A stretch of DNA of 64,000 bases from Terriglobia bacterium (lineage in GTDB: Bacteria > Acidobacteriota > Polarisedimenticolia > Polarisedimenticolales > JAIQFR01): assembly GCA_963748015.1 (NCBI GenBank), contig CAVVHE010000008.1, forward strand, positions 670,070 to 734,069, written 5' to 3'. Below, piece by piece: positions 3,286 through 59,095 of this stretch. How positions within the stretch are numbered: the stretch's first letter is position 1; the number at the start of each line of letters is the position of its first letter. Position numbers and translations under genes: made by a program. Under the pieces are notes generated by a model that saw nothing but the letters and a program-made list of their open reading frames with translations, was not told the DNA's origin and searched no databases.

Positions 3286-5277
3286 GTGAGAAGGCTGGGC
3301 TTTAGGACGAGGCTGCTCCTCGGTTTCTTCCTGGTCGTCGGCATCATGGCCACGGTGGCCACCTGGGCGGGCTTCTCGTTCATCTCCCAGACGATGGTGA
3401 AGGAGGCGATGCTCCGCGTGGAGATGGATCTCGGCGCCGCCTGGTCCGCCTACGAGGCGGAGAGGAACCAGATCCAGATCGTCGTCGGCATGGCTTCCCA
3501 AAACGACACGCTGCGGGCCGCCCTTCGGCCCCCCCGGCGGCTCGAGGGCGTCGGTAGGGAGCTCGAGGCCTATCGCAAGAAGTACAGGCTCGATTTTCTG
3601 ACGCTGGTGGACGCCGAGGGCGTTGCAACCGCGCGGTCACGCCCCCCCCTCGCGGCGGGAGACAAGGTCTGGAGCGATCCGATCCTCGAACGCGCGCTGA
3701 AGGGGAAAGCCGCGAGCGGCACGGTCGTAATGCCCGGCTCGGCCCTCGAGCTCGAGGGCGAGGAGCTCGAACAACGCGCCTACATCCCCGTGATCTTCAC
3801 CGACAGAGCTGTGCCCACCGAGAGGATTGCGGAGGACCGGGGACTGGTCCTCGAGGCCGCCATGCCGATCGTGGGCTCGGGGGACCGAGTGATCGGGGCG
3901 CTCACGGGGGGAGTCCTGCTGAACCGCAAGTTCGCATTCGTGGACCGGATCCGTGACGTCGTGTTCGGAGACAAGACCTTCGAGGGGAAGCCGGTGGGGA
4001 CGGTGACCCTCTTTCTGTCGGACGTCCGGATCGCCACCAACGTGATGCTCGACCCGGGAACCCGCGCCATAGGGACCCGGGTCTCGCAGGCGGTTTACGA
4101 GACCGTGGTCAAGCGCGGCGAGCGTTTCGCCAATCGGGCCTTCGTCGTCAACGACTGGTACCTGTCGGCGTATGACCCGATTCGCGATCCGGACAACCGG
4201 GTGATCGGGATCCTCTACGTGGGCTTGCTCGAGAAGAAGTACATGGAGTTCAAGTCGAGCCTCGCCGCCCGGTACGTGGGGATCAGTTTCGGCGCGCTCG
4301 TGCTGTCGACGGTCGTCGCGTTGTACCTCGCCAGCGGCTTCCGGCGGCCGATCCACGGCCTTGTCCGAGCGACCCGGGAGCTCTCGAGCGGCAACCTCGC
4401 GGCGCGGGTGCGGCTCGGATGGGCGAGCCGCGAGACCGCCGAGCTCGGCGACGCCTTCAACTCGATGGCGGAGGCCCTGGAGAGGCAAACCAGCCAAGTG
4501 CAGGAAGCTTCGGAGGCCCTCCAGAAGGCGTACAGGGAAACCGAGGAGAAGAACCGCGCCTACCTCGAGATGCTCGGCTTCGTGACCCACGAGTTGAAAT
4601 CCCCACTGGCCTCCATCGTCTTCGCGATCGGCGCCCTGCGCGATCGCATCCTGGGTCCGGTCAACGACGCACAGGAGCAGATCCTCAGGGCGGCCTCGAA
4701 CAGCGCGGATTACCTCCGGGACACCATCGCGAACTACCTCAACCTCAGCCGGATCGAGGAAGGCGAGCTGAGGCTTCGCTGGTCGGTGGTCGCCATTCGC
4801 GACGAGATACTGGCACCCGTCCTGGACCGGCTATCCGAGCTCGCCGCCGAACGCGGCATGCGGATCGAGTGCGAGGTTCCGCCCGACGTCGCCGGCGCGT
4901 GCGACCCCAGCCTGATCACGTCCGTTTTCCAGAACCTCCTGTCCAACGCCGTGAAGTACGGCCGGGAGGGGGGGCGGATCCGGGTCACCGCGGGGAGCGA
5001 CGGGACTTCCGGTTTCGTGCGGTTCCATGTCTGGAACGAGGGGGAGGGGTTCCCGAGTGGCGAAGGCGAGAAGCTCTTCCGGAAGTTCTCGCGTCTGACC
5101 CACGGCGGCGACGACACGAAATCCGGCACGGGCCTCGGGCTGTTCGTATCCCGGGTGATCGTCGAAAAGCACGGCGGTCGGATCGAGGCCGAGTCGGCAC
5201 CCGGGCAGTGGGCCGATTTCTCATTCACCCTTCCGACGGCCGTTCCACGTCCACAGATTCCGGTCCCGTCCGAGTAG
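3286..5277 (+). CDS. Sensor histidine kinase (N-terminal TM, periplasmic Cache-like domain, HAMP, HisKA, HATPase_c)
   Basis: GTG start. Two TM segments flank a ~290-aa periplasmic region. HAMP-like linker. H-box FVTHELKSPLASI. N/G boxes (NLLSNAVKYG, GTGLGLFVSRVIVEKHGG). Confidence 0.9.
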   Translation: MRRLGFRTRLLLGFFLVVGIMATVATWAGFSFISQTMVKEAMLRVEMDLGAAWSAYEAERNQIQIVVGMASQNDTLRAALRPPRRLEGVGRELEAYRKKYRLDFLTLVDAEGVATARSRPPLAAGDKVWSDPILERALKGKAASGTVVMPGSALELEGEELEQRAYIPVIFTDRAVPTERIAEDRGLVLEAAMPIVGSGDRVIGALTGGVLLNRKFAFVDRIRDVVFGDKTFEGKPVGTVTLFLSDVRIATNVMLDPGTRAIGTRVSQAVYETVVKRGERFANRAFVVNDWYLSAYDPIRDPDNRVIGILYVGLLEKKYMEFKSSLAARYVGISFGALVLSTVVALYLASGFRRPIHGLVRATRELSSGNLAARVRLGWASRETAELGDAFNSMAEALERQTSQVQEASEALQKAYRETEEKNRAYLEMLGFVTHELKSPLASIVFAIGALRDRILGPVNDAQEQILRAASNSADYLRDTIANYLNLSRIEEGELRLRWSVVAIRDEILAPVLDRLSELAAERGMRIECEVPPDVAGACDPSLITSVFQNLLSNAVKYGREGGRIRVTAGSDGTSGFVRFHVWNEGEGFPSGEGEKLFRKFSRLTHGGDDTKSGTGLGLFVSRVIVEKHGGRIEAESAPGQWADFSFTLPTAVPRPQIPVPSE

Positions 5278-5340: not shown

Positions 5341-5777
5341 CGCTCGGCCTCTGTGGTGCCGGCAGCGCCGGCCAGCATCGCCTCGATCCTCGCGAGGATC
5401 TCCGCCGGCCTGATCGGCTTCTCGACGAACGCATCGACGGGAAGGAGCGCGGTGCCGATCCGGTCGCTGAAGTTCAGGTGGGTCTTCGCCGTCACGCTGG
5501 TCAGCATGATGATCGGGACGTTCGCGTAGGCCGCGAACGGCGACTCCGGTCCGCTTGCTCGAAGCTGACTGAGGACCCGGAACCCCGCCACGAAATCCTC
5601 CATGATCACGTCGAGGATGATCAGGTCGGGCTCGACTTCGCGGATTCTCCGCAGCCCTTCGGCGGCGGAATGCGCCGAGTGGAACTCGTAGCCCCTGGCG
5701 TCGCAGACCAGCTTGAACACGTTGACGAGGTTCACGTCGTCGTCGATCATCAGCAGCTTCTTCTTGCCCGCGTCCAT
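5337..5777 (-). CDS. Stand-alone response regulator receiver domain (CheY-like)
   Basis: KKLLMIDDD...DLIILDVIM (acidic pocket and phospho-acceptor Asp)...MLTS...EKP. No output domain. Confidence 0.9.
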   Translation of the reverse strand: MDAGKKKLLMIDDDVNLVNVFKLVCDARGYEFHSAHSAAEGLRRIREVEPDLIILDVIMEDFVAGFRVLSQLRASGPESPFAAYANVPIIMLTSVTAKTHLNFSDRIGTALLPVDAFVEKPIRPAEILARIEAMLAGAAGTTEAER

Positions 5778-5799
5778 CAGAGTCCTCCAGGTGTTGTGC

Positions 5800-6207
5800 T
5801 CAACCCCCGATCACGACCTTGTCGCCGGCGATCCGGACGGGAACGGACTCGAGAGGTCTGGGCGGGAGGCCGGTGATCACGCGGCCGTCGGCGTCGTAGA
5901 CGCCGCCGTGGCAGGGGCAGTGATAGCGGCGGTCGGAGGGCTCCCAGCGGACCTCGCATCCCTGGTGGGTGCAGCGGAGCGAGCGGGCGCTGATGCCGCC
6001 GCCGGTTCGAACGATCTCGACCGGGATCTCCGCCCACACCATCCGGACGCGCTTCCCCTCCGGCACCTGCGCCAGCGGGACCTCGAGGGGCGGGGCTGTG
6101 GGGCCGCAGCCCGCGAGGCCGAGCGCGTGCGCGGCAGCGGCCAGTCCCGCGGTCCGTCCCAGGATTCCCAGCGCTTCTCGCCGCCCGCACTCGCCGCCGC
6201 CGGTCAC
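5800..6207 (-). CDS. Rieske [2Fe-2S] domain protein with Tat-like signal
   Basis: CTHQGC...CPCHGG Rieske motifs. RREALGILGRTAGLAAAAHA twin-arginine-like leader. GTG at 6207 is preceded by GGAGGAGG, so I prefer it to the longer TTG start at 6276. A 22-nt gap to the receiver gene suggests an operon. Confidence 0.85.
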   Translation of the reverse strand: MTGGGECGRREALGILGRTAGLAAAAHALGLAGCGPTAPPLEVPLAQVPEGKRVRMVWAEIPVEIVRTGGGISARSLRCTHQGCEVRWEPSDRRYHCPCHGGVYDADGRVITGLPPRPLESVPVRIAGDKVVIGG

Positions 6208-6326
6208 GTGCCCCTCCTCCGCGCCGGACCGGATACCACGCGCCCCGGAAGGGTCGGCGGCAGCCGGGCCGGTCAAGTATCCTAAACGGGCAGGCGCGGA
6301 AATCCAACGGCGGGAGGCGGGCGATC

Positions 6327-8699
6327 GTGGACGGGACCGAGCGGGACGGGCGGGGGGGCGTCGTCGAGCGGCGCCGGCTCGTCTGCCGCGGCGCCGTCCA
6401 GGGGGTCGGGTTCCGTCCTTCGGTTCACCGGCTCGCGACGGAGTTGGGGCTTGCCGGCTGGGTGCGCAACGGTCCGGAGGGCGCCGTCGTCGAGTTGGAG
6501 GGCCCCCGGGCGCTCGTCGAGACTTTCCTCGCGAGGTTTCCCCGCGAGCTGCCGCCGCTCGCGCGCCTCGAGTCTCTCGACGCCGAGGAGATCGCGCCCG
6601 AGGGGAGCCGGTCGTTCCGCGTCGAGGAGTCGGAGGCCGGGCCGCGAAGCGGGGCCCTCGTACCGCCCGACGCGGCGCTCTGCGCGGACTGCCGGCGCGA
6701 GATGGAGGATCCCTCCGACCGCCGCCACCGGTACCCCTTCACCACCTGCACGAACTGCGGGCCGCGCTTCTCGCTGTGCCTCTCGTTCCCGTACGACCGC
6801 GTGCGGACCTCGATGGCCCGCTTCCCGCTCTGCGCCGACTGCGCCCGCGAGTATCGCGACCCCGGCGACCGGCGCTTCCACGCGGAGCCGGTCTGCTGCC
6901 CAGCCTGCGGGCCGCAGCTGTCCCTCGTGGATGCCGAGGGGAAGGTCGAGGCTACCGGTAGCGAGGCGCTCGAGGCCGCGCGGGGGGCGCTCGCCCGCGG
7001 CGCGATCGTCGCCGTGAAGGGACTCGGCGGCTTCCAGCTCGCGTGCCGCGCGGATCTCGTGCCGTCGCTCAGGCTCCTGCGCGAGCGGAAGCGGCGCCCG
7101 ACCAAGCCGCTCGCGGTCATGGTCCGCGATCTCGAGGCGGCGAGGCGCCTGGTCGTGCTGTCGGAGGAGGACGATAGCCTGCTCGAGTCGCCCCGGTCGC
7201 CGATCCTGCTCGCGGCGCGGCGGAGCCCGTCTCCGCTCCCCGCGGACGTGGCGCCGGGAATCGACGATCTCGGCGTGATGCTCCCGACCACGCCGCTGCA
7301 CGTGGAGCTCTTCCGCGGAACCCCCTACGACGCGCTGGTCATGACCAGCGGAAACGCCGGCGACGAGCCGATCTGCCGCGGCAACCACGAGGCCGTCGGA
7401 CGGCTCGCGGGCATAGCGGACCACTTCCTGCTCCACGATCGCGACGTGGTCCGCCGCGTGGACGACTCGGTGGCTCGCGCGCTCCCGGGGGGCGCCGCCG
7501 TCATGGTGCGGAGGTCGCGCGGCTGGGTCCCCGAGCCCGTCCCGCTCGCCGAGCCCGCGCCGGTCCCGATCCTCGCCCTCGGCGGGCACCTCGCGGTGAC
7601 GGCCTGCCTCGCCTCCGGCGGGCAAGCCTTCCCGTCCCAGCACGTGGGCGATCTCGACAGCGAGCCGGCCCGGGCCTTCCTGGTGGAGGTCGCGTTAGGA
7701 CTCGAGGAGTTCCTCGAATCGCGCGCCGGGGCGGTCGCGGTGGATCTCCACCCCGACTACCCGAGCACCTGGATCGGGGAGGACCTCGCGGCGCGGCGGC
7801 GGGTGCCGCTGATCCGGATCCAGCACCACCTCGCCCACGCCGCGTCCGTCCTCGCCGAGCACGGGGTCTTCCCGAGGCCGGGCGAGCAGGCGGGGGCGAT
7901 CGTGCTCGACGGGACCGGGTGGGGACCGGACGGTACCGCCTGGGGAGGGGAGTGGATCCTCCTGGAAGGCGACCTGCGCTGGCGGCGGCAGGCGCACCTC
8001 GCGGAGATCCCGCTCGTCGGCGGCGAGAGCGCGGTCCGCGAGCCGTGGCGCGTCCTGGCCGCGGCCCTGGCCCGGGAAGGTGCTTCGAGCCTGCTACCCC
8101 GACTCCCCGTCGCGGACCTCGTCGCGCCGGAGCGATTGCTCGAGGCAGCGCGCCTCGCCGCCAACCCCGCCTGGCCGCTCGCCGCGGGGGCAGGGCGGCT
8201 CTTCGAGGCGGCGGGGGCCCTTCTCGGCCTCGCGGCCGAGAACGGTTGGGAGGGGGAGGCCGCGGCCCGGCTCGAGTCGCTCGCGGCGAGCGATGCCGGC
8301 GACGCGATGGCCTGGCCGGAGGTCGGGCTTCGCGATCTGCCGCGAGGGCCGGTCGTGCCCGGGCCCGCCCTGCTCGCCGCGGCGGCGCGGCGGGTCGCGG
8401 CGGGAGAAGACCCGGCCCGGGTCGCGTCGGGGTTTCATGCTACCTTCTGCAAGCTGGCCGCGGAGGCGGCGTCCCGCGTGTTTCCCGCGGGGACCGCGGT
8501 CATAGCGCTCGGCGGCGGGTGCCTCGTGAACCGGCTGCTCTCGAGGGGCCTCGCGGCCCGCCTCGAGGAAGCCGGCTTCGCCGTGAGGACGCCGCGCGCG
8601 CTTCCGCCCGGCGACGGGGGGCTCTCCCACGGCCAGGCGGTCCTCGCCGCCCTCTCGCTCGCGCGCGGGCGCGAGCCGGAGCTGAAAGGAGCGGTCTGA
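6327..8699 (+). CDS. hypF: [NiFe]-hydrogenase maturation carbamoyltransferase HypF
   Basis: Acylphosphatase-like N-terminus (VQGVGFRPSVHRLA). Two CxxC-x18-CxxC zinc-finger pairs (CADCRRE...CTNCGPRFS; CADCARE...CPACGPQ). YrdC-like and Kae1-like C-terminal parts. GTG start with GGGAGG upstream. Confidence 0.95.
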   Translation: MDGTERDGRGGVVERRRLVCRGAVQGVGFRPSVHRLATELGLAGWVRNGPEGAVVELEGPRALVETFLARFPRELPPLARLESLDAEEIAPEGSRSFRVEESEAGPRSGALVPPDAALCADCRREMEDPSDRRHRYPFTTCTNCGPRFSLCLSFPYDRVRTSMARFPLCADCAREYRDPGDRRFHAEPVCCPACGPQLSLVDAEGKVEATGSEALEAARGALARGAIVAVKGLGGFQLACRADLVPSLRLLRERKRRPTKPLAVMVRDLEAARRLVVLSEEDDSLLESPRSPILLAARRSPSPLPADVAPGIDDLGVMLPTTPLHVELFRGTPYDALVMTSGNAGDEPICRGNHEAVGRLAGIADHFLLHDRDVVRRVDDSVARALPGGAAVMVRRSRGWVPEPVPLAEPAPVPILALGGHLAVTACLASGGQAFPSQHVGDLDSEPARAFLVEVALGLEEFLESRAGAVAVDLHPDYPSTWIGEDLAARRRVPLIRIQHHLAHAASVLAEHGVFPRPGEQAGAIVLDGTGWGPDGTAWGGEWILLEGDLRWRRQAHLAEIPLVGGESAVREPWRVLAAALAREGASSLLPRLPVADLVAPERLLEAARLAANPAWPLAAGAGRLFEAAGALLGLAAENGWEGEAAARLESLAASDAGDAMAWPEVGLRDLPRGPVVPGPALLAAAARRVAAGEDPARVASGFHATFCKLAAEAASRVFPAGTAVIALGGGCLVNRLLSRGLAARLEEAGFAVRTPRALPPGDGGLSHGQAVLAALSLARGREPELKGAV

Positions 8700-8929
8700 T
8701 GTGCCTGGCGATACCGATGGAGCTGATCGAGCGGGGAGAGTACGACGGCGAGGTGGAGCTGAACGGCGTGCGCCGCAAGGTCTCGCTGATGCTCCTCCCC
8801 GAGGCCGAGGTGGGGGAGTACCTCCTGATCCACGCCGGTTACGCCATCGGGAAGCTCGACGCCGAGGAGGCCAAGGAGACGATCGCCCTCCTCGAGGAGC
8901 TGGCCCGCGCGTCGGGGGATGCGCCGTGA
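8699..8929 (+). CDS. hypC: Hydrogenase maturation chaperone HypC
   Basis: MCLAIPMELIE... (N-terminal Cys2 signature), 76 aa. The ATG shares one nt with the hypF stop. Confidence 0.9.
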   Translation: MCLAIPMELIERGEYDGEVELNGVRRKVSLMLLPEAEVGEYLLIHAGYAIGKLDAEEAKETIALLEELARASGDAP

Positions 8930-10035
8930 CGGCCGACGCGCCCTTCTTCGATCCGAAGACGGTCGCGACCCTCGTTGCCCGCATTCGCGAGACCGCCGAG
9001 GCGCTCACCCGGCGGGTCGTTCTCATGGAGGTCTGCGGCACGCATACCCACGCGATCGCGGCCGCGGGCCTGCGCCGCCTCCTGCCCCCCGGCGTCCGGT
9101 TGATCTCGGGGCCGGGGTGCCCGGTGTGCGTCACGCCGGTGGACTACATGGACCGCGCCGAGGCGCTCTCGGCGCTTCCGGACACGATCGTGACCACCTT
9201 CGGCGACCTCATGCGGGTCCCGTCGAGCCGCGGGAGCCTCGAGCGGGCGAGGGCGAGAGGCGCGAGGATCGAGATCGTCTATTCGCCGCGCGACGCCCTC
9301 GACATCGCGCGCGCGGAGCCGAAGTCCCGCGTGATCTTCCTGGCGGTCGGGTTCGAGACGACGGCCCCCACCATCGTCGCGGCGGTCGAGGAGGCGGAGC
9401 GGCTCGGCATCCCGAACTTCCTGATCCTGCCCGGCAACAAGATCGTTCCCCCGCCGCTCCGGGCGCTCGCGAGCGACCCCGAGGTGCAGGTCAACGGCGT
9501 GCTCCTCCCCGGGCACGTCTCGGTCGTGACCGGCGCCTTGGAGTTCGAGTTCCTCGCGAAGGAATTCGGCGTCCCGTCCGCCGTCGTCGGGTTCACCCCC
9601 GCCGACGTGCTGCGCGGCGTGCTGGAGCTGGCGGAACAGCTTCGGGATGGGCGGGCCGAGGTCGCGAACCTCTACGGCCGCGTCGTGACGGCGGAGGGGA
9701 ACCTCCACGCGCGCGCGCTCCTCGACAAGTTCTTCGAGCCGGCCGACACGGCGTGGCGCGGCCTCGGGCGCATCCCGCTCTCGGGCTTGGCGCTTCGCCC
9801 CGCGTGGGCGCACCGCGACGCGTCGCGGATCGCCGTCGAGCTGCCGGAGCCGGTGGAGCCCGCGGGGTGCCGGTGCGGCGAGGTGCTGAAGGGCACGATC
9901 GATCCGCCGGAATGCCCGCTCTTCGCGGGCGACTGCACGCCGGAGACCCCCGTCGGCGCGTGCATGGTCTCGAGCGAGGGGACCTGCGCCGCCTGGTACC
10001 GGCACGACCGCTGGGCCGCCGGGGCGCGTTCTTGA
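8926..10035 (+). CDS. hypD: Hydrogenase maturation protein HypD
   Basis: GTG start overlaps the hypC stop (GTGA). MEVCGTHTHAI, GPGCPVCVTP, C-terminal Cys cluster (CxxxxxxC...C). Confidence 0.95.
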   Translation: MTADAPFFDPKTVATLVARIRETAEALTRRVVLMEVCGTHTHAIAAAGLRRLLPPGVRLISGPGCPVCVTPVDYMDRAEALSALPDTIVTTFGDLMRVPSSRGSLERARARGARIEIVYSPRDALDIARAEPKSRVIFLAVGFETTAPTIVAAVEEAERLGIPNFLILPGNKIVPPPLRALASDPEVQVNGVLLPGHVSVVTGALEFEFLAKEFGVPSAVVGFTPADVLRGVLELAEQLRDGRAEVANLYGRVVTAEGNLHARALLDKFFEPADTAWRGLGRIPLSGLALRPAWAHRDASRIAVELPEPVEPAGCRCGEVLKGTIDPPECPLFAGDCTPETPVGACMVSSEGTCAAWYRHDRWAAGARS

Positions 10036-11051
10036 GCGGCCCCGAGAAGATCCTCCTGGCCCACGGGTCGGGAGGACGGCTGACCCACGCCCTCGTGCGG
10101 GAGACCTTCCTTCCGGCGTTCGACAATCCGTTCCTCGCGACCCTCTCCGACAGTGCGATCCTGCCCGAGCTGCCGCCGGGGCGCCCCGCCCTGACCACCG
10201 ACGCGTTCGTCGTGGACCCGCCGGTCTTTCCGGGGGGCGACCTCGGCTACCTCTCGATCTGCGGCACGGTCAACGACCTCGCGGTCGCGGGAGCGCGGCC
10301 GCTGTGGCTCACCTTCGCGGTGATCCTCGAGGAGGGTCTCTCGGGCGAGCTGCTCGAGACGTTCGCGCAAGGCGCGGCTCGCGCCGCGGAAGAGGCGGGG
10401 GTCCGGGTCGTGGCCGGCGACACGAAGGTCGTCCCGCAGGGGAAGGGCGACCGCATGTACGCGGTGACGGCGGGTCTCGGCGTGGTTCCCCCGGGCCGGG
10501 AGCTTGGCGACCACCGGATCCGGCCGGGGGACGCCTTGCTGGTCTCCGGAACGCTCGGCGACCACGGCGCGACCGTGATGGCGTGCCGCCATGGGATGGC
10601 GGGGCCGGGCCTCAAGTCCGACTGCGCTCCCATCGCATCTCTCGTCGAGACGCTGCTCGCATCGGGCGCGGACGTCCACGCGATGCACGACCCCACCCGC
10701 GGCGGCGCGGCCGTCACCTGCAACGAGGTGGCCGGGCGGGCCGGCGTGCGCATCGTCCTCGACGAGGCGCGCCTGCCCGTGCGCGGCGAGGTCTCCGCGA
10801 TCTCCGAGATGCTCGGGCTCGACCCGCTCTACCTCGCCTCCGAGGGCCGCGTCCTCGCCTGGGTCGCCGGCCCCGACGCCGATCGCGCGCTCGACGCCCT
10901 CCGTTCCCACCCGCTCGGCCTCGGCGCCGTGCGGATCGGCGAGGTCACCGCCGCCCCGCCCGGGGCCGTCCCCGTCCTCCTCCGCACCCGGATCGGCGGC
11001 GAGCGCCCCGTCGACCTCCTCTCCGGCATGGACCTACCGCGCATCTGCTGA
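10032..11051 (+). CDS. hypE: Hydrogenase maturation protein HypE (carbamoyl dehydratase)
   Basis: TTG start overlaps the hypD stop (TTGA). AIR-synthase-like fold motifs (AHGSGG, GDTKV). Canonical C-terminal PRIC. Confidence 0.95.
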   Translation: MSGPEKILLAHGSGGRLTHALVRETFLPAFDNPFLATLSDSAILPELPPGRPALTTDAFVVDPPVFPGGDLGYLSICGTVNDLAVAGARPLWLTFAVILEEGLSGELLETFAQGAARAAEEAGVRVVAGDTKVVPQGKGDRMYAVTAGLGVVPPGRELGDHRIRPGDALLVSGTLGDHGATVMACRHGMAGPGLKSDCAPIASLVETLLASGADVHAMHDPTRGGAAVTCNEVAGRAGVRIVLDEARLPVRGEVSAISEMLGLDPLYLASEGRVLAWVAGPDADRALDALRSHPLGLGAVRIGEVTAAPPGAVPVLLRTRIGGERPVDLLSGMDLPRIC

Positions 11052-56578: not shown

Positions 56579-56656
56579 CCCAGCGCGCGGCCGTGCAGGG
56601 GTCCCCGTCGCCTCGGGCATTGTCGCCGCGGGGTGATCCACGGACGATCGCGGGAA

Positions 56657-56689
56657 AGCGACGGCAACCGTCTTTCGGTTGCCGTCGCT
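56657..56689. terminator. 14-bp perfect hairpin between convergent genes
   Basis: AGCGACGGCAACCG-TCTTT-CGGTTGCCGTCGCT, 7 nt downstream of the minus-strand porin stop. Only a weak U-tract (TTT on the minus strand). Confidence 0.5.
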
Positions 56690-56695
56690 CGCCGT

Positions 56696-57907
56696 TCAGA
56701 ACGCGAAGTCGAGACGCAGGGTGAAGTAGTCCTCGGTGGCGTCGGGCAGGTTCGTTGCCCGGTAGCTCGTGGTGCGGTTCGAGTACTCGACGTGCAGGGC
56801 GATCTGGTCCTCGAAGTAGTAGCGGAGGCCGGCGGTGTAACGCGTGAGGGAGTCCTCGATGGAGACGTCGGGAGGGCTCACCCAGTCGTAGCGCGCGAAG
56901 CAGACGAAGTCGGTCCGCGGCTGGTAGAGGAGCTCGCCGAAGCCGCCGGAGTAGGTGGGGTCGCTCGTGGCTCCGGGCCAGAAGACCTTGCTGTCCTCGG
57001 CGTAGAGGTACTGGAGGGAGAGGTTCACCTGCCTGAAGTTGAGGCTCGCGTCGAGGCCGTAGCGCGTGAAGGTCTCCCGCGAGTCGGGTCCCTCGACGAT
57101 CCACGGACGGGCCTTACCCTGGTACGCGATCACCCCGAGCCGGTGACCGGCGGTCTGTCCCTCGCCGGCGCCGATCACGGCGTCGAACCGCGCGTAGAAG
57201 TCCGAAGGGGAGTCGTCCGACTGGCTGCTGTTCGATCCGTCGAGGATGCCCGCGGCGTAGTGAAGCCCCTTCCCTCCTCGCCCGAAGACCTCGATGCCGG
57301 TCTGCGTCTCGGAGAGCGGGATGCCGTCCGCGAACGTGTAGTCGTAGATCTCGTACGGGGAGACGGTGAGCCGGCGCTTCACGCTGAAGCCCACTAAATC
57401 CGGCTCGAACCGGCCCGCGCGGACGTTGAGCCAGCTCGAGCGGGCAAGGCGCGCGAAGACGGCGTTGGCCGACTCGAGCGTTCCTTCCTGGGGCGCGACG
57501 CCGCGGGTCCCCTCGTTGATCTGGGGCGTGTACACCGCGAAGTAGCCCACGTTCGAGCCGAGCAGGCCGGCCGAGAGGATGTCGAGCCCCTCGAGGCGGA
57601 ACTCATTGACGTCGGAGGCGTCGGAGTTGTTGAACGAGTCGTAGACGTAGCCCGCGCTGGTCCGGAGCGCGATCGGCGTGGGACTGTTCAGCACCGTGCG
57701 CTCCTCGTTCTCGCGGCCCGGGAGGCGGTAGCCGTTCTCGCGGTAGTTCGAGCCGAAATCGTTGAGCCGCGGGAAGGCGGAATGGCACATCGTGCAGTTG
57801 AACCCGTACTTCCGGGCGAACGCCGGGATGGCGCGGGATTCCCCCGGCCAGGCCACGGCGAGCAGCACCAGGGCGAGGAGCGGAACGGAGAGAGCCGCGC
57901 GCTTCAT
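56696..57907 (-). CDS. Fused mono-haem cytochrome c / outer-membrane beta-barrel protein (Cyc2-like)
   Basis: Signal peptide MKRAALSVPLLALVLLAVAWPGESRA. Then IPAFARKYGFNCTMCHSAFPRLNDFG with a single CxxCH (nt 57782-57796). ~360 aa of alternating beta-strand-like sequence ending ...FTLRLDFAF. The ATG overlaps the upstream peroxidase stop. Confidence 0.65.
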   Translation of the reverse strand: MKRAALSVPLLALVLLAVAWPGESRAIPAFARKYGFNCTMCHSAFPRLNDFGSNYRENGYRLPGRENEERTVLNSPTPIALRTSAGYVYDSFNNSDASDVNEFRLEGLDILSAGLLGSNVGYFAVYTPQINEGTRGVAPQEGTLESANAVFARLARSSWLNVRAGRFEPDLVGFSVKRRLTVSPYEIYDYTFADGIPLSETQTGIEVFGRGGKGLHYAAGILDGSNSSQSDDSPSDFYARFDAVIGAGEGQTAGHRLGVIAYQGKARPWIVEGPDSRETFTRYGLDASLNFRQVNLSLQYLYAEDSKVFWPGATSDPTYSGGFGELLYQPRTDFVCFARYDWVSPPDVSIEDSLTRYTAGLRYYFEDQIALHVEYSNRTTSYRATNLPDATEDYFTLRLDFAF

Positions 57908-58944
57908 CGTGCACCTCCCTGCGAGGGCGAGTCCTCCGGCAGTGCCGGCTTCTTGATCGCGGGCAGGGTACCGGTGAGAGCCTCCATGAACGCCACGAGA
58001 TCGGCCTTCTCGCTCGCGGTCAGCCTGAGCGGCAGCATGAGCGGGTCGAGATCGGGGTTCGCCTCCCCGCCGCGATCGTAGACCCCGACCACGTCCATGA
58101 GCGTCTTCGCCGAGCCGTCGTGGAGGTAGGGGCCGGTGAGGGCGACGTTGCGCAGCCCGGGGGTCTTGAACTTCCCGCGGTCCGCGGGATTCTTCGTGTG
58201 GGCCTCGCGGCCGAGATCGGGATTGGGCTTGCCCATCCCGACGCCGAGGTTGTGGAAGGACTGGTCGGAGAACGCCGGGCCGCTGTGGCAGGGCGTGCAG
58301 TGGGCCTTGCCGTTGAAGAGATTCATTCCCCGGACGGCGGCCGCGCTCATCGCGCTCTTCTCGCCGAGGAGGTACCGGTCGTAGGGGGACGGGCCGGAAA
58401 CGACCGTGCGCTCGAAGGCGGCGATCGCCTTGGCGATCCCGTCGGTGTCCACGTCGGTCCCGAAGACCTCCTTGAACTGGGCGCGGTAGCCGGGGATCGC
58501 GTTGAGCTTCTTCACCACGTTCTCGAGGGTCTCGCCCATCTCGATCGGGTTGTGGATCGGCCCGAGGGCCTGCTCCTCGAGGGAGCCCGCTCGGCCGTCC
58601 CAGAACTGGAATCGCATGTAGGCGGAGTCGAGGATCGTACCGGAGTTCCTCCCGCCGACCTGCCCCTTGATCCCCGTGTCGGTCGGGTCGTGGTTCGCCC
58701 ACGCGGCGTCGGGTTTGTGGCACGTGGCGCAGCTGATCGTGTTGTCCGCGGAGAGCCGCGGGTCGAAGTAGAGCTGGGCCCCGAGACGGACCTTGGCGTC
58801 GGTCTGCGGGTTGTCCGGCGGCACCGGGACGGGGGGTAGCGGGCCGTTCGAAAGGAACCCGCCCCCGGCGTGGGCCGCCGGCAACCGGGCCGCGGCGGCC
58901 AGGAGAAGCGCGGCGAGCAGGACAACCGGAACACGTCGTCGCAT
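57904..58944 (-). CDS. Di-haem cytochrome c peroxidase (CCP/MauG family)
   Basis: Signal peptide. Two CxxCH motifs (CATCH, CTPCH). FWDGRA, GPIHNPIEMG, KFKTPGLRNV, PYLHDGS blocks of bacterial CCPs. Confidence 0.9.
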   Translation of the reverse strand: MRRRVPVVLLAALLLAAAARLPAAHAGGGFLSNGPLPPVPVPPDNPQTDAKVRLGAQLYFDPRLSADNTISCATCHKPDAAWANHDPTDTGIKGQVGGRNSGTILDSAYMRFQFWDGRAGSLEEQALGPIHNPIEMGETLENVVKKLNAIPGYRAQFKEVFGTDVDTDGIAKAIAAFERTVVSGPSPYDRYLLGEKSAMSAAAVRGMNLFNGKAHCTPCHSGPAFSDQSFHNLGVGMGKPNPDLGREAHTKNPADRGKFKTPGLRNVALTGPYLHDGSAKTLMDVVGVYDRGGEANPDLDPLMLPLRLTASEKADLVAFMEALTGTLPAIKKPALPEDSPSQGGAR

Positions 58945-59095
58945 CAGACCCCCTTTTCCCTCGCGGCCGGGATCCGTCGTCGCGGCTGCCCGGCCGGCAG
59001 GATGCGCTGGGCCGTCGAGGAAGGCCCGACGGCGAATGGGGGCGATTCTATCAACGACGACGACCGCGGAGAAGATCGGGAGCAGAAGAAAAGGA

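Follow-up and report, generated by a model that had tools for sequence, protein, structure and literature searches.

Fe(II) oxidation has been established or proposed for homologues of Cyc2, and their family signature consists of the motif AXPXFAR[Q/K][T/Y], a CXXCH and a PXL, with a minimum length of 365 aa (Keffer et al. 2021, PMC8406198). According to that study, Cyc2PV-1 oxidises Fe(II) and has an Em of +208 mV. Among di-haem enzymes, canonical bCCPs as a rule bind the electron-transfer (E) haem through a His-Met pair, and an inter-haem Trp is kept in both bCCPs and MauG-type enzymes (PMC11892367). His-Tyr enzymes react in the diferric state with H2O2 to give Fe(IV)Fe(IV)=O; the dye-linked peroxidase activity of the characterised MauG-type enzymes is generally poor, and two of them modify partner proteins instead of detoxifying H2O2 (PMC11892367). 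BthA, a His-Tyr enzyme, is still catalytic in H2O2 reduction with an external donor (PMC6405878).

The locus described here places genes related to these two families side by side, and we found no description of a pairing of a di-haem peroxidase with a cytochrome-porin in the literature. MtrAB/MtoAB/PioAB and the Geobacter Pcc systems resemble it in combining an outer-membrane barrel with one or more haem proteins, in compact clusters, for electron passage across the outer membrane. In those conduits, however, 26-strand barrels sheath separate multihaem cytochromes, whereas here one haem motif is fused to a predicted 16-strand barrel, and the place of the multihaem wire is taken by a putatively peroxide-activating periplasmic enzyme.

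The locus and its two genes

Both genes lie on the minus strand of the window, by which we mean the whole 64,000-nt stretch of DNA analysed (Table 1). The ATGA overlap between them, noted originally, was read in the sequence: the plus strand carries tcat, giving ATGA on the minus strand, with the ATG at 57907-57905 and the TGA at 57906-57904. With 517 relatives in the databases in one case and more than 7900 in the other, both are real and strongly conserved genes and not chance ORFs. A 675-aa ORF in the porin frame was rejected as a GTG-start artefact; every homologue begins at the MKR... position. The hairpin past the porin stop folds at -37.9 kcal/mol (z -4.95), none of 200 shuffles folded equally well, and it is probably the terminator of the two-gene unit.

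Genes within ~5 kb of the pair encode an HTH-TPR regulator, a DUF885-like protein, an acyl-CoA synthetase, an FAD oxidoreductase, an SCP2 protein, a CMAS-type methyltransferase and an EamA protein. As had been stated originally, no cytochrome-maturation or respiratory genes occur among these neighbours. Upstream of the pair we found neither a Fur nor a PerR element, nor any other sign of iron- or peroxide-dependent regulation.

Table 1. Features of the gene pair, with positions in the window, ordered along the minus strand.
Feature	Position	Strand	Basis
CCP/MauG-superfamily di-haem enzyme gene, periplasmic, 346 aa, first of pair	57904..58944	-	ORF, Pfam CCP_MauG
Sec-type signal peptide of di-haem enzyme, MRRRVPVVLLAALLLAAAARLPAAHA	58867..58944	-	read from translation, cleavage site inferred
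First CXXCH (CATCH, aa 72-76), peroxide-binding (P) haem	58717..58731	-	aligned with first haem motif of solved bCCPs
GIKGQ (aa 91-95), Ile92 at distal-His position of P haem	58660..58674	-	alignment
FWDGR (aa 114-118), inter-haem Trp115	58591..58605	-	invariant in 101 coupled enzymes
Second CXXCH (CTPCH, aa 216-220), E haem	58285..58299	-	alignment
VYDRGG (aa 288-293), Tyr289 at E-haem axial-ligand position	58066..58083	-	alignment
GGAGG, Shine-Dalgarno-like, 6 nt 5' of porin ATG, within end of di-haem gene	57914..57918	-	sequence
ATGA start/stop overlap of both genes	57904..57907	-	sequence
Cyc2-family fused cytochrome-porin gene, 403 aa plus stop, second of pair	56696..57907	-	ORF
Porin signal peptide (aa 1-26, ...GESRA)	57830..57907	-	by inspection, cleavage site inferred
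AIPAFARKY (aa 26-34), Cyc2 motif AXPXFAR[Q/K][T/Y]	57806..57832	-	translation
CTMCH (aa 38-42), only haem-binding motif of porin	57782..57796	-	translation
PRL (aa 46-48), PXL motif	57764..57772	-	translation
16-strand beta-barrel (aa 79-403), ends at C-terminal Phe	56699..57673	-	AlphaFold2 strand list
GAGEGQTAG (aa 246-254), 9-residue turn between strands 8 and 9	57146..57172	-	model and conservation
Strong hairpin, 2 nt past porin stop, between convergent genes	56651..56694	-	RNA fold

The cytochrome-porin and its Cyc2 relatives

The translation of the downstream gene and its AlphaFold2 model agree with the original description of a signal peptide, a single CXXCH, a barrel and a final Phe. 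The protein begins with MKRAALSVPLLALVLLAVAWPGESRA and ends with ...RLDFAF; its sole CXXCH falls in the segment IPAFARKYGFNCTMCHSAFPRLNDFG, and the other Cys (aa 336) is isolated. AlphaFold2 predicted an N-terminal helix (aa 2-18), the same N-terminal layout is seen in about 75 homologues, and cleavage at the predicted site would leave the AIPAFARKY motif at the mature N-terminus. Residues P28, F30, A31, R32, K33 and Y34 of this region are invariant in 101 sequences, as is L48 of the PXL motif, whose Pro is the fourth residue past CXXCH (H42-S-A-F-P46-R-L48). The spacing from AIPAFARKY to the Cys is 3 residues, as in the Methylocystis Cyc2-like protein AVPSFARQTGQPCATCH.

The AlphaFold2 model contains 16 strands over aa 79-402, with a mean pLDDT of 79 and values mostly above 80 in the barrel. 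Its best PDB structural match by Foldseek was OprP 2o4v (E 1.2e-12), followed by OprO and general porins, with OprO 4rjw/4rjx within the top six; OprP is also the template reported for Cyc2 (PMC8406198). Pfam Porin_O_P was matched at aa 336-403 (E 4.9e-7). The 16-strand barrel that had been anticipated was thus recovered, while the haem domain expected to be plugged inside it lies in a region (aa 20-75) modelled only at pLDDT <50. An outer-membrane location is predicted from two features, the C-terminal Phe and the barrel fold.

All of the Cyc2 sequence and architecture features tested were found, namely the signal peptide, one CXXCH, both motifs, 16 strands and 403 aa. Kinship with Cyc2-like proteins is further supported by a profile comparison in which the N-terminal cytochrome domain, and only this domain, matched the Methylocystis Cyc2-like protein (hhalign probability 97%, E 8e-11), a proteobacterial protein whose gene adjoins genes for c-type cytochromes, and by tblastn matches to Cyc2-like genes of Ralstonia, Caballeronia and Methylocystis. 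HMM matches of the porin run continuously down to 3764 clusters, and many or most of the barrel invariants are common to the coupled porins and the uncoupled Cyc2-like outgroups. The protein resembles A. ferrooxidans Cyc2, Mariprofundus Cyc2PV-1 and Leptospirillum Cyt572 in its signal peptide, single CXXCH, both motifs and length of ~400 aa, as well as in the predicted 16-strand barrel, the OprP/OprO structural match and an N-terminal domain homologous to proteobacterial Cyc2-like proteins. These sequence and model data support its placement in the Cyc2 fused cytochrome-porin family, as a member of an unusually conserved and unannotated subfamily; its homologues are about 400 aa long, and every one is annotated "hypothetical protein".

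The subfamily differs from the described Cyc2 proteins in several respects. Barrel identity is 32-72% across phyla (mean 48%), compared with 16-50% reported among the Cyc2 of iron oxidisers, in which the porin part is poorly conserved. The hosts are uncultured non-proteobacterial lineages. A di-haem CCP/MauG-type gene obligately precedes the porin gene, and Cyc1/c4, HiPIP, cupredoxin or oxidase genes are absent from the arrangement. The nearest uncoupled relatives, by contrast, have other neighbours: in Caballeronia (L081) these are a HiPIP and a di-haem cytochrome of the c4 type, in Methylocystis (L082) three cytochromes of the c type, and in a third locus (L164) a cupredoxin together with a di-haem cytochrome. 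The literature describes the same canonical cytochrome context for Cyc2 genes, and validated iron oxidisers lack the peroxidase-porin arrangement. The di-haem enzyme here fills the slot that a soluble c4-type (Cyc1-like) cytochrome occupies beside canonical Cyc2 genes. A further difference is the turn GxGEGQTxG, an invariant element of the coupled porins that the uncoupled outgroups have either lost or changed. All 101 sequences keep G248, G250, Q251 and G254 of this turn, and aa 248-252 have low pLDDT. By strand count in the model the turn would be periplasmic, making it a candidate docking site for the di-haem partner.

The di-haem enzyme and its ligand positions

The assignment of the upstream gene to the di-haem CCP/MauG family held, with a Pfam CCP_MauG match of E 5.6e-60 and CXXCH motifs at aa 72-76 and 216-220. 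Over its whole sequence it is matched best by canonical bCCPs (200-222 bits, with E from 1e-59 to 1e-64), which are also its best structural matches. Among PDB sequences, bCCP 3o5c scored 222 bits, MbnH 6e1c 164 and MauG 105, and identity is 38-39% to canonical bCCPs versus 30-33% to MauG-type enzymes. The NCBIfam models for MauG (TIGR03791, 253 bits vs 444) and MbnH (TIGR04039, 240 vs 363) were both matched below their cut-offs.

Like the canonical bCCPs (N. europaea 1IQC, S. oneidensis 3O5C, Geobacter CcpA/MacA), the enzyme is predicted to be periplasmic and keeps the peroxide pocket, with the Gln, Glu and Pro of QFWDGRA..LEEQA.GP; this pocket and the inter-haem Trp are fully conserved in the coupled enzymes. 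The haem ligands, however, differ. Tyr289 occupies the position of the E-haem axial Met of 3hq9, 3o5c and 1iqc (Met258 of 1iqc by count), standing 14 residues past His275 of PYLHDG and just before an insertion of 10 residues that canonical bCCPs lack, and no conserved Met occurs near it in the enzyme alignments. It is aligned with the Tyr of MbnH 6e1c (IYSEGG) and is invariant in 101 coupled enzymes. Ile92, conserved at 90% or more, aligns with the distal His of 3o5c, 1iqc and 3hq9 (sigHhwq, sigHkwq and stgHgwq), a residue present in these three aligned bCCPs, with coordination varying among canonical bCCPs. Directly after the first CXXCH, the enzyme has Lys/Asp-Pro where the three aligned bCCPs have Asn. 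The donor differs too, being a soluble cytochrome or cupredoxin in canonical bCCPs and, putatively, the predicted outer-membrane cytochrome-porin here.

Judged by these alignments, the enzyme has the fold of a canonical peroxidase but is not one, having neither the His-Met pair at its E haem nor the distal His. His/Tyr ligation of the E haem, of the MauG/MbnH type, appears probable instead, and the P haem would be permanently open because no distal His is present. The choice between "CCP" and "MauG-like" that had been left standing is settled in part: the ligand pattern speaks for the MauG/MbnH type and against a canonical peroxidase. The enzyme shares with MauG, MbnH and BthA the CCP_MauG fold, two c-haems, the inter-haem Trp and the absence of a distal His on the P haem, as well as the E-haem Tyr in Y-x-x-G-G followed by an insertion, in a segment closest to MbnH 6e1c. 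As in MauG-type systems, its gene adjoins that of a specific envelope partner protein. It departs from them in a sequence and fold nearer to canonical bCCPs, in a partner that is a haem-bearing outer-membrane barrel and not pre-MADH or MbnP, and in that the enzyme gene comes first. No mauA/mauB or mbnP substrate gene was found within ~5 kb, and the cytochrome-porin gene is the sole conserved neighbour in 80 loci.

The likeness to MauG and MbnH raises the main rival to the explanation we prefer below, a maturation pair in which the enzyme would use H2O2 to modify the porin post-translationally and be dispensable afterwards. The modification could be an aromatic oxidation or cross-link, or an altered haem or ligand, comparable to the action of MauG on pre-methylamine dehydrogenase and of MbnH on MbnP. 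Tyr289 and the MbnH-like E-haem segment fit such a role; bis-Fe(IV) is formed by every His-Tyr enzyme characterised, and the protein partners of MauG and MbnH are encoded close by. The porin itself has no obvious distal haem ligand (its one Met belongs to the CXXCH motif, and of other residues H372 alone is fairly conserved), its Tyr34, Tyr60, Tyr188 and Tyr238 are invariant, and an unusual haem group was reported for the Cyc2 relative Cyt572 (PMC8406198). Yet MauG and MbnH are known to act on Trp, of which the coupled porins have no invariant example (W310 is conserved in one clade only), and most invariant aromatics are also found in uncoupled Cyc2-like outgroups without such an enzyme. Gene order is also at odds with this reading: in the known pairs mbnPH, corAB and mopE-MCA2590 the substrate gene is first, whereas here the enzyme gene is first and translationally coupled to that of an outer-membrane protein. 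The NCBIfam MauG and MbnH scores, well under the cut-offs, also speak against it. We consider a maturation pair unlikely.

Conservation of the pair and its possible role

In 79 of the 80 genome loci a di-haem homologue immediately precedes the porin gene in the same orientation; the loci are all from MAGs and span at least 13 phylum-level groups, and the sole exception is a contig edge. The pairing also occurs in 51 metagenome loci, and the subfamily porin was never found without the enzyme (79/79 informative genome loci), in line with the conserved neighbourhood that the original prediction had made its test. The two genes overlap (-4 nt) in 25 loci, and most of the remaining loci have 6-27 nt between them. 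No third conserved gene was found; the next families occur in at most about 11-20 loci, the larger ones being shadow ORFs. Between the identity matrix of the enzymes and that of the porins the correlation is r 0.78 (n=101 pairs), a value reached in 0 of 999 permutations. Taken together, these data point to a self-contained, so far undescribed envelope module. Adjacency and co-evolution would look alike for an enzyme and its maturation substrate.

Such strict pairing bears on the possibility that the two proteins are co-regulated and work independently, with Cyc2-like Fe(II) oxidation feeding unlinked carriers and an oxidase, and the peroxidase handling reactive oxygen species. Each half of this picture has precedent, in the Fe(II) oxidation established or proposed for Cyc2 homologues and in the detoxification of periplasmic H2O2 by bCCP-family enzymes. 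Moreover, close enzyme relatives occur without the porin; five of them are very close (70-77% identity), and some enzyme relatives have Leu for Tyr. The porin, however, was in no genome or metagenome locus without the enzyme directly upstream, the overlap or gap of <30 nt is kept across the phylum-level groups, the two proteins co-vary, and the invariant periplasmic turn is specific to the subfamily, thereby suggesting a dedicated protein contact. Validated iron oxidisers lack this arrangement, and many groups named in the host labels, such as Elusimicrobiales, Aminicenantes, Bacteroidales and Fibrobacteraceae, are not known as aerobic lithotrophic iron oxidisers. Independent action seems very unlikely.

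We favour, tentatively and with slightly less than even confidence, an explanation in which Fe(II) electrons passing via the porin haem would reduce the peroxide-oxidised di-haem enzyme, so that H2O2 is consumed without an inner-membrane partner. The diferric enzyme would react with periplasmic H2O2 to a high-valent, bis-Fe(IV)-like state, which the cytochrome-porin haem would re-reduce in two one-electron steps. The porin haem would in turn be reduced by an external donor that enters the pore; the most probable one is dissolved Fe(II), which has been shown to serve other Cyc2 proteins. The net reaction at the envelope would be 2 Fe(II) + H2O2 + 2 H+ -> 2 Fe(III) + 2 H2O. If this is true, both Fenton reagents would be removed, and as no inner-membrane partner takes part, there would be no obvious energy conservation. 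The explanation presumes that the two proteins touch, that electrons flow from porin to enzyme, and that Fe(II) donates them and H2O2 accepts them; a direct link between the two proteins and a fixed stoichiometry, both proposed originally, may likewise apply. The EfeUOB-type ferrous iron peroxidase offers an analogy in its way of working only, as an envelope haem peroxidase that oxidises Fe(II) with H2O2; it is unrelated, being composed of the DyP-type EfeB, EfeO and the permease EfeU, serving iron uptake at the cytoplasmic membrane and having no outer-membrane component. The generally poor peroxidase activity of MauG-type enzymes and the action of two of them on partner proteins, the enzyme's better overall match to canonical bCCPs, the stand-alone enzyme relatives and those with Leu for Tyr, and the failure to find a Fur/PerR element upstream of the pair speak against Fe(II)-peroxide coupling.

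The donor to the porin haem could be other than Fe(II). The same wiring might serve other chemistry, with the high-valent enzyme drawing electrons via the porin haem from Mn(II), reduced humics or phenolics, or with electrons flowing outward from a low-potential di-haem protein via the porin haem to an extracellular acceptor; we regard this as distinctly unlikely. The barrel has some dozen charged residues that are invariant, which suggests that its lumen is selective. The E-haem potentials of MauG-type enzymes are low, about -100 to -200 mV (PMC11892367), and would suit an electron donor role. Most of the barrel invariants, however, are common to relatives in classic Cyc2-type contexts, and no reductase or quinol-linked partner is encoded nearby. 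The fully conserved Gln, Glu, Pro and inter-haem Trp of the peroxide-activating pocket argue for H2O2 chemistry rather than for a plain shuttle. Improbable to a still greater degree, in our judgement, is a peroxide-powered trans-outer-membrane oxidase, in which the MauG-type enzyme would hold two oxidising equivalents taken from periplasmic H2O2 as bis-Fe(IV), and these "holes" would be exported via the porin haem and aromatics to substrates beyond Fe(II). If true, it would open a novel path for oxidation outside the cell, by which uncultured soil and sediment bacteria would oxidise extracellular Mn(II), humic or phenolic matter independently of a respiratory chain.

By their labels, the MAGs come from lake sediment or water column (Lac Pavin, Loclat, Kiruna, K_DeepCast_250m), fen, peat and permafrost soil; lakes, fens, peat and permafrost are settings with Fe(II)/O2 interfaces.

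Organization of the gene pair and the Cyc2-family porin

The original prediction had described a di-haem CCP/MauG gene followed by, and overlapping with, a gene for a fused cytochrome-porin, and this two-gene layout was borne out in every detail by the sequence, the ORFs and the Pfam matches. Positions 57904-57907 read tcat on the plus strand, which is ATGA on the coding strand, so that the porin ATG overlaps the TGA of the enzyme gene as predicted, and a GGAGG sequence lies 6 nt upstream of this ATG. Translation confirmed a signal peptide, a single CXXCH and a terminal Phe in the downstream product, in which AIPAFARKYGFNCTMCHSAFPRLNDFG is followed by about 325 residues and the C-terminus ...RLDFAF, and the CCP/MauG-family assignment of the upstream product was supported by a CCP_MauG match in Pfam (E 5.6e-60). 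A 675-aa ORF in the porin frame was rejected as an artefact of a far-upstream GTG; the homologues all begin at the MKR position. The flanking genes (regulator, DUF885-like, acyl-CoA synthetase, FAD oxidoreductase, SCP2, CMAS and EamA) included no respiratory or cytochrome-maturation genes, again as predicted. Between the convergent porin and acyl-CoA synthetase genes, which lie 117 nt apart, a hairpin with no more than a short U/T run at each flank could act as a bidirectional transcription terminator. The closest relatives of the window are Acidobacteriota/Terriglobia MAGs.

Positions of the gene pair and adjacent hairpin in the window, and of the pair in locus L061 from an Ignavibacteriaceae MAG
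Feature	Position	Strand	Description
Di-haem gene, window	57904-58944	-	346 aa; Sec-type leader; two CXXCH, aa 72-76 and 216-220
Porin gene, window	56696-57907	-	403 aa; begins MKRAALSVPLLALVLLAVAWPGESRA, then AIPAFARKYGFNCTMCHSAFPRLNDFG
Hairpin, window	56651-56694		15-bp perfect stem; -37.9 kcal/mol; z -4.95; starts 2 nt past porin stop
L061 copy 1, enzyme	4373-5245		
L061 copy 1, porin	5353-6564		
L061 copy 2, enzyme	8250-9122		
L061 copy 2, porin	9230-10441		

Keffer et al. defined the Cyc2 family by six features (PMC8406198): a signal peptide, one CXXCH, AXPXFAR[Q/K][T/Y] just upstream of CXXCH (described as unique to Cyc2), PXL four residues past CXXCH, a length of at least 365 aa, and a 16-strand porin modelled on OprO/OprP. 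In the window porin, AIPAFARKY, CTMCH and PRL are all correctly placed. An AlphaFold2 model built on a 36-sequence alignment contained 16 strands at aa 79-402 (mean pLDDT 79, pTM 0.78), and a Foldseek search against the PDB returned OprP (2o4v) first and OprO within the top six, in agreement with the barrel that had been expected. The haem domain (aa 20-75) was modelled at a pLDDT below 50, and its position relative to the barrel is not readable from the model. Pfam matched only the C-terminal Porin_O_P region, and no NCBIfam model was found for the porin.

As a comparison set, in place of biochemically validated Cyc2 sequences, we used plasmid-borne Cyc2-like genes, which tblastn detected in Ralstonia, Caballeronia and Methylocystis. 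The family profile matched the Methylocystis protein in the cytochrome domain (AVPSFARQTGQPCATCHTAFPELTSYGRRFKLNGYT) with 97% probability (E 8e-11), while BLASTP against the annotated Caballeronia CDS gave a weak match, because that annotation begins past the haem motif. Homology among accepted Cyc2 proteins is likewise described in the literature as limited to the N-terminus. The family motifs and the Methylocystis profile match thus sustain the predicted Cyc2 architecture and identify the window porin, at the sequence level, as a Cyc2-family fused cytochrome-porin. An exhaustive HMM search with the porin yielded 3764, 1431 and 119 clusters (50% identity) at E <=1e-3, <=1e-10 and <=1e-30, respectively, and the porins with a di-haem gene directly upstream (coupled porins) are a tight subfamily within this large Cyc2-like superfamily.

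Conservation and limits of the pairing

Searches seeded from two clades returned 517 and 1256 clusters (90% identity) of porin relatives. A locus scan with one genome per species gave 80 loci, all from MAGs of uncultured bacteria, with at least 13 phylum-level labels (Acidobacteriota/Terriglobia, Armatimonadota, Elusimicrobia, Eisenbacteria, Myxococcota, Lentisphaerae, Pseudomonadota, Krumholzibacteria, Bacteroidota, Ignavibacteriota, Zixibacteria, Calditrichota, Aminicenantes and Fibrobacteraceae). The adjacency of the two genes held in 79 of the 80 loci, where the porin gene is directly preceded on the same strand by a di-haem homologue (49-87% identity); in the remaining locus the contig extends only about 150 bp upstream of the porin. 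These data ruled out a chance adjacency or a mis-called ORF. The two genes overlap by 4 nt in 25 loci, and in nearly all others they are 6-27 nt apart. Mere co-regulation of two independent functions is very unlikely, as the porin is absolutely dependent on the presence of the enzyme gene.

All-against-all ORF clustering of the 80 loci revealed no third widely shared gene; the recurrent neighbours were mutually unrelated and comprised BNR-repeat proteins, response regulators, kinases, beta-lactamase-fold proteins and, in four loci of the Bacteroidota/Ignavibacteriota clade, CDF transporters. The CDF gene (Pfam Cation_efflux and ZT_dimer) directly follows the porin gene at L045:9241-10284 and in three other clade-B loci, a possible, though not general, sign of a connection with metal handling. 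In the Ignavibacteriaceae MAG, the entire pair occurs twice in tandem (L061:4373-10441) with identical match statistics, as the result of a recent duplication or of a repeat in the assembly.

Enzyme and porin gave correlated pairwise identity matrices over 101 complete pairs (r 0.78, Mantel 0/999); common ancestry by itself could account for part of this correlation. The two main clades are mixed in their phylum labels, with Eisenbacteria, for example, in both, which points to horizontal transfer of the cassette. Seen from the enzyme, the association was strong but incomplete: the porin lies downstream in 51 of 71 informative metagenome loci with an enzyme relative, and is lacking there for five close relatives (70-77% identity) and for every one of the 15 at 52-58% identity.

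On the porin side, coupling ends at the subfamily boundary. The nearest uncoupled outgroup porins (292 and 241 bits) adjoin regulators or another Cyc2-like gene, and a 201-bit relative has a cupredoxin on one side and a di-haem c-type cytochrome on the other. Genes for a HiPIP and a c4-type di-haem cytochrome border the Caballeronia gene, and the Methylocystis gene has three c-type cytochromes downstream; cupredoxin, HiPIP and c-type cytochrome neighbours are known from the literature as the classic Cyc2 contexts of iron oxidisers. The nearest outgroup locus, L165:1107-2947, holds tandem Cyc2-like genes, the second beginning ...IPAFAKAYRMSCASCH, downstream of a STAS/HATPase regulator gene and with no peroxidase gene.

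Hybrid character of the enzyme and invariant features of the porin

The best sequence and fold matches of the enzyme were canonical peroxidases (3o5c, 222 bits; 1iqc, 215 bits; 38-39% identity), followed by MbnH (164 bits, 33%) and MauG (105 bits, 30%). The curated NCBIfam models for MauG and MbnH both scored well below their cut-offs, and the enzyme is therefore not an orthologue of either. Its AlphaFold2 model (pLDDT 68.5, shallow alignment) was used for fold assignment only. In canonical bCCPs, the electron-transfer (E) haem has a Met ligand 14 residues past the His of P-Y-(F/L)-H (Met258 of 1iqc by count), whereas the window enzyme has Tyr289 (VYDRGG) at this position, followed by a 10-residue insertion; the Met of 3hq9 aligns directly with Tyr289, and the best match of the VYDRGG segment is MbnH (IYSEGG), Tyr to Tyr. 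Tyr289 is invariant in the 101 coupled enzymes, with no conserved Met nearby, and the alignments suggest that the E haem is ligated by Tyr. The distal His of the peroxide-binding (P) haem in all three aligned bCCPs is replaced by Ile92. The same 101 enzymes invariably keep the inter-haem Trp115 and the Gln/Glu/Pro peroxide pocket. A canonical peroxidase with a cytochrome donor was rejected as a full description on account of Tyr289 and Ile92, and the enzyme is best viewed as bCCP-like overall and putatively MauG/MbnH-like at the haems. Ligation by His-Met is that of canonical bCCPs, whose E haem lies at +200 to +450 mV, and His-Tyr is that of MauG-type enzymes, at -100 to -200 mV, which in the diferric state react with H2O2 to give Fe(IV)Fe(IV)=O (PMC11892367, PMC6405878).

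Close enzyme relatives of up to 77% identity stand alone among unrelated genes in several metagenome loci (L114, L130, L131, L134, L136, L148 and L163). Some stand-alone relatives retain the Tyr (VYDEGG, FYNRGG), and others have Leu at its position (FLDMGG, FLDAGG, FLDDGG) and would be without the Tyr ligand.

Invariance in the porin was counted across 101 coupled sequences. The haem motif was invariant, as were about 12 charged barrel residues (R82, D109, E145, R163, E168, R178, E206, R282, D305, R362, E374 and D400) and a nine-residue turn, G246-x-G-E-G-Q-T-x-G254. In the AlphaFold2 model, the turns on the face of 246-254 have 2, 9, 4, 9, 2, 2 and 2 residues and the opposite face carries the long loops; the strand count would place turn 246-254 on the periplasmic side. 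Most of the barrel invariants are shared by the uncoupled outgroups and the turn is not, which makes it the best candidate for a contact with the enzyme.

A predicted A-x-A| cleavage directly precedes xPxFAR(K/Q)Y in essentially all homologues (window 57806-57841, aa 23-34), so that the family motif would form the mature N-terminus of the porin. In cytochrome f (YPIFAQQ...), the haem is ligated by the N-terminal amino group. The porin N-terminus resembles this sequence with a different spacing, a lead only; a PDB sequence search with the isolated porin haem domain returned nothing meaningful and left the idea unsupported. The mature porin has no Met outside CXXCH, and H372 is the sole fairly conserved His, without a counterpart in uncoupled relatives; it thus has no obvious distal haem ligand. 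This would suit a MauG-like maturation of the porin by the enzyme, for which there is precedent in the partner proteins oxidised by MauG and MbnH (literature including PMC6405878). We consider such a maturation unlikely, however, as no Trp is invariant across both clades of the 101 coupled porins and the enzyme gene comes first in the gene order.

Proposed electron path and its implications

The best-supported reading, which we put forward tentatively and rate at slightly less than an even chance, is a two-protein electron path from an outside donor through the porin haem and the enzyme to H2O2. The porin haem would be reduced by the donor, for which Fe(II) is the most probable candidate, as in other Cyc2 proteins (Cyc2PV-1 has an Em of +208 mV, PMC8406198), and would in turn reduce the peroxide-oxidised di-haem enzyme, and H2O2 would be reduced to water. 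In its gene position, the enzyme takes the place of the Cyc1-type di-haem cytochromes beside canonical cyc2 genes. An open P haem and a low-potential, Tyr-ligated E haem would fit reaction with H2O2 first and reduction afterwards, and BthA, too, can use an external donor to turn over H2O2 (PMC6405878). As the enzyme itself would be the terminal peroxide reductase, this path would require no inner-membrane component, and the absence of any other conserved gene fits. The same wiring with another substrate or in the other direction is rather improbable. According to the MAG labels, the samples came from lake sediments, anoxic water columns, fen, peat and permafrost, which we take to be settings compatible with a role at Fe(II)/O2 interfaces.

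Members of the porin family are all annotated as 'hypothetical protein' and the enzyme as 'cytochrome c peroxidase', all in metagenomes or MAGs. A Cyc2-peroxidase or Cyc2-MauG pairing was not found in the literature covered, which included the main Cyc2 and bCCP papers and was incomplete, so that an earlier notice is possible. Both kinds of protein are known; what sets this case apart is their obligate pairing, the hybrid enzyme and the conserved, putatively periplasmic turn. Metagenome studies use Cyc2 as a marker of microbial iron oxidation, for instance through FeGenie, and here a large, environmentally widespread subfamily fits the published Cyc2 signature, yet is tied to a MauG-type di-haem gene and no respiratory chain. 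Matches to this subfamily should not be counted as lithotrophic iron oxidation if the two proteins act as an Fe(II):H2O2 oxidoreductase; in that case, the pair would represent a new way for bacteria to disarm Fenton chemistry at oxic-anoxic interfaces and supply a His-Tyr di-haem enzyme, for the first time, with a physiological electron donor. A maturation pair would instead predict an unknown protein-derived or modified-haem cofactor in an outer-membrane cytochrome. On either reading, the cassette, with just two genes, is compact enough to be tested directly in a heterologous host.

No Fur- or PerR-like boxes were found in 134 upstream regions, and a sigma-70 consensus scan detected no promoter. 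The upstream sequences suggest that the pair may bring or acquire its own promoter. At a distance of about 80-100 nt ahead of the enzyme start, hexamers resembling a -10 element (TAGAAT, TAGACT, TATAAT, TACACT) occur at 58990-59010 in the window and in the loci L001, L086, L087 and L092, within surrounding sequence that is otherwise unalignable.
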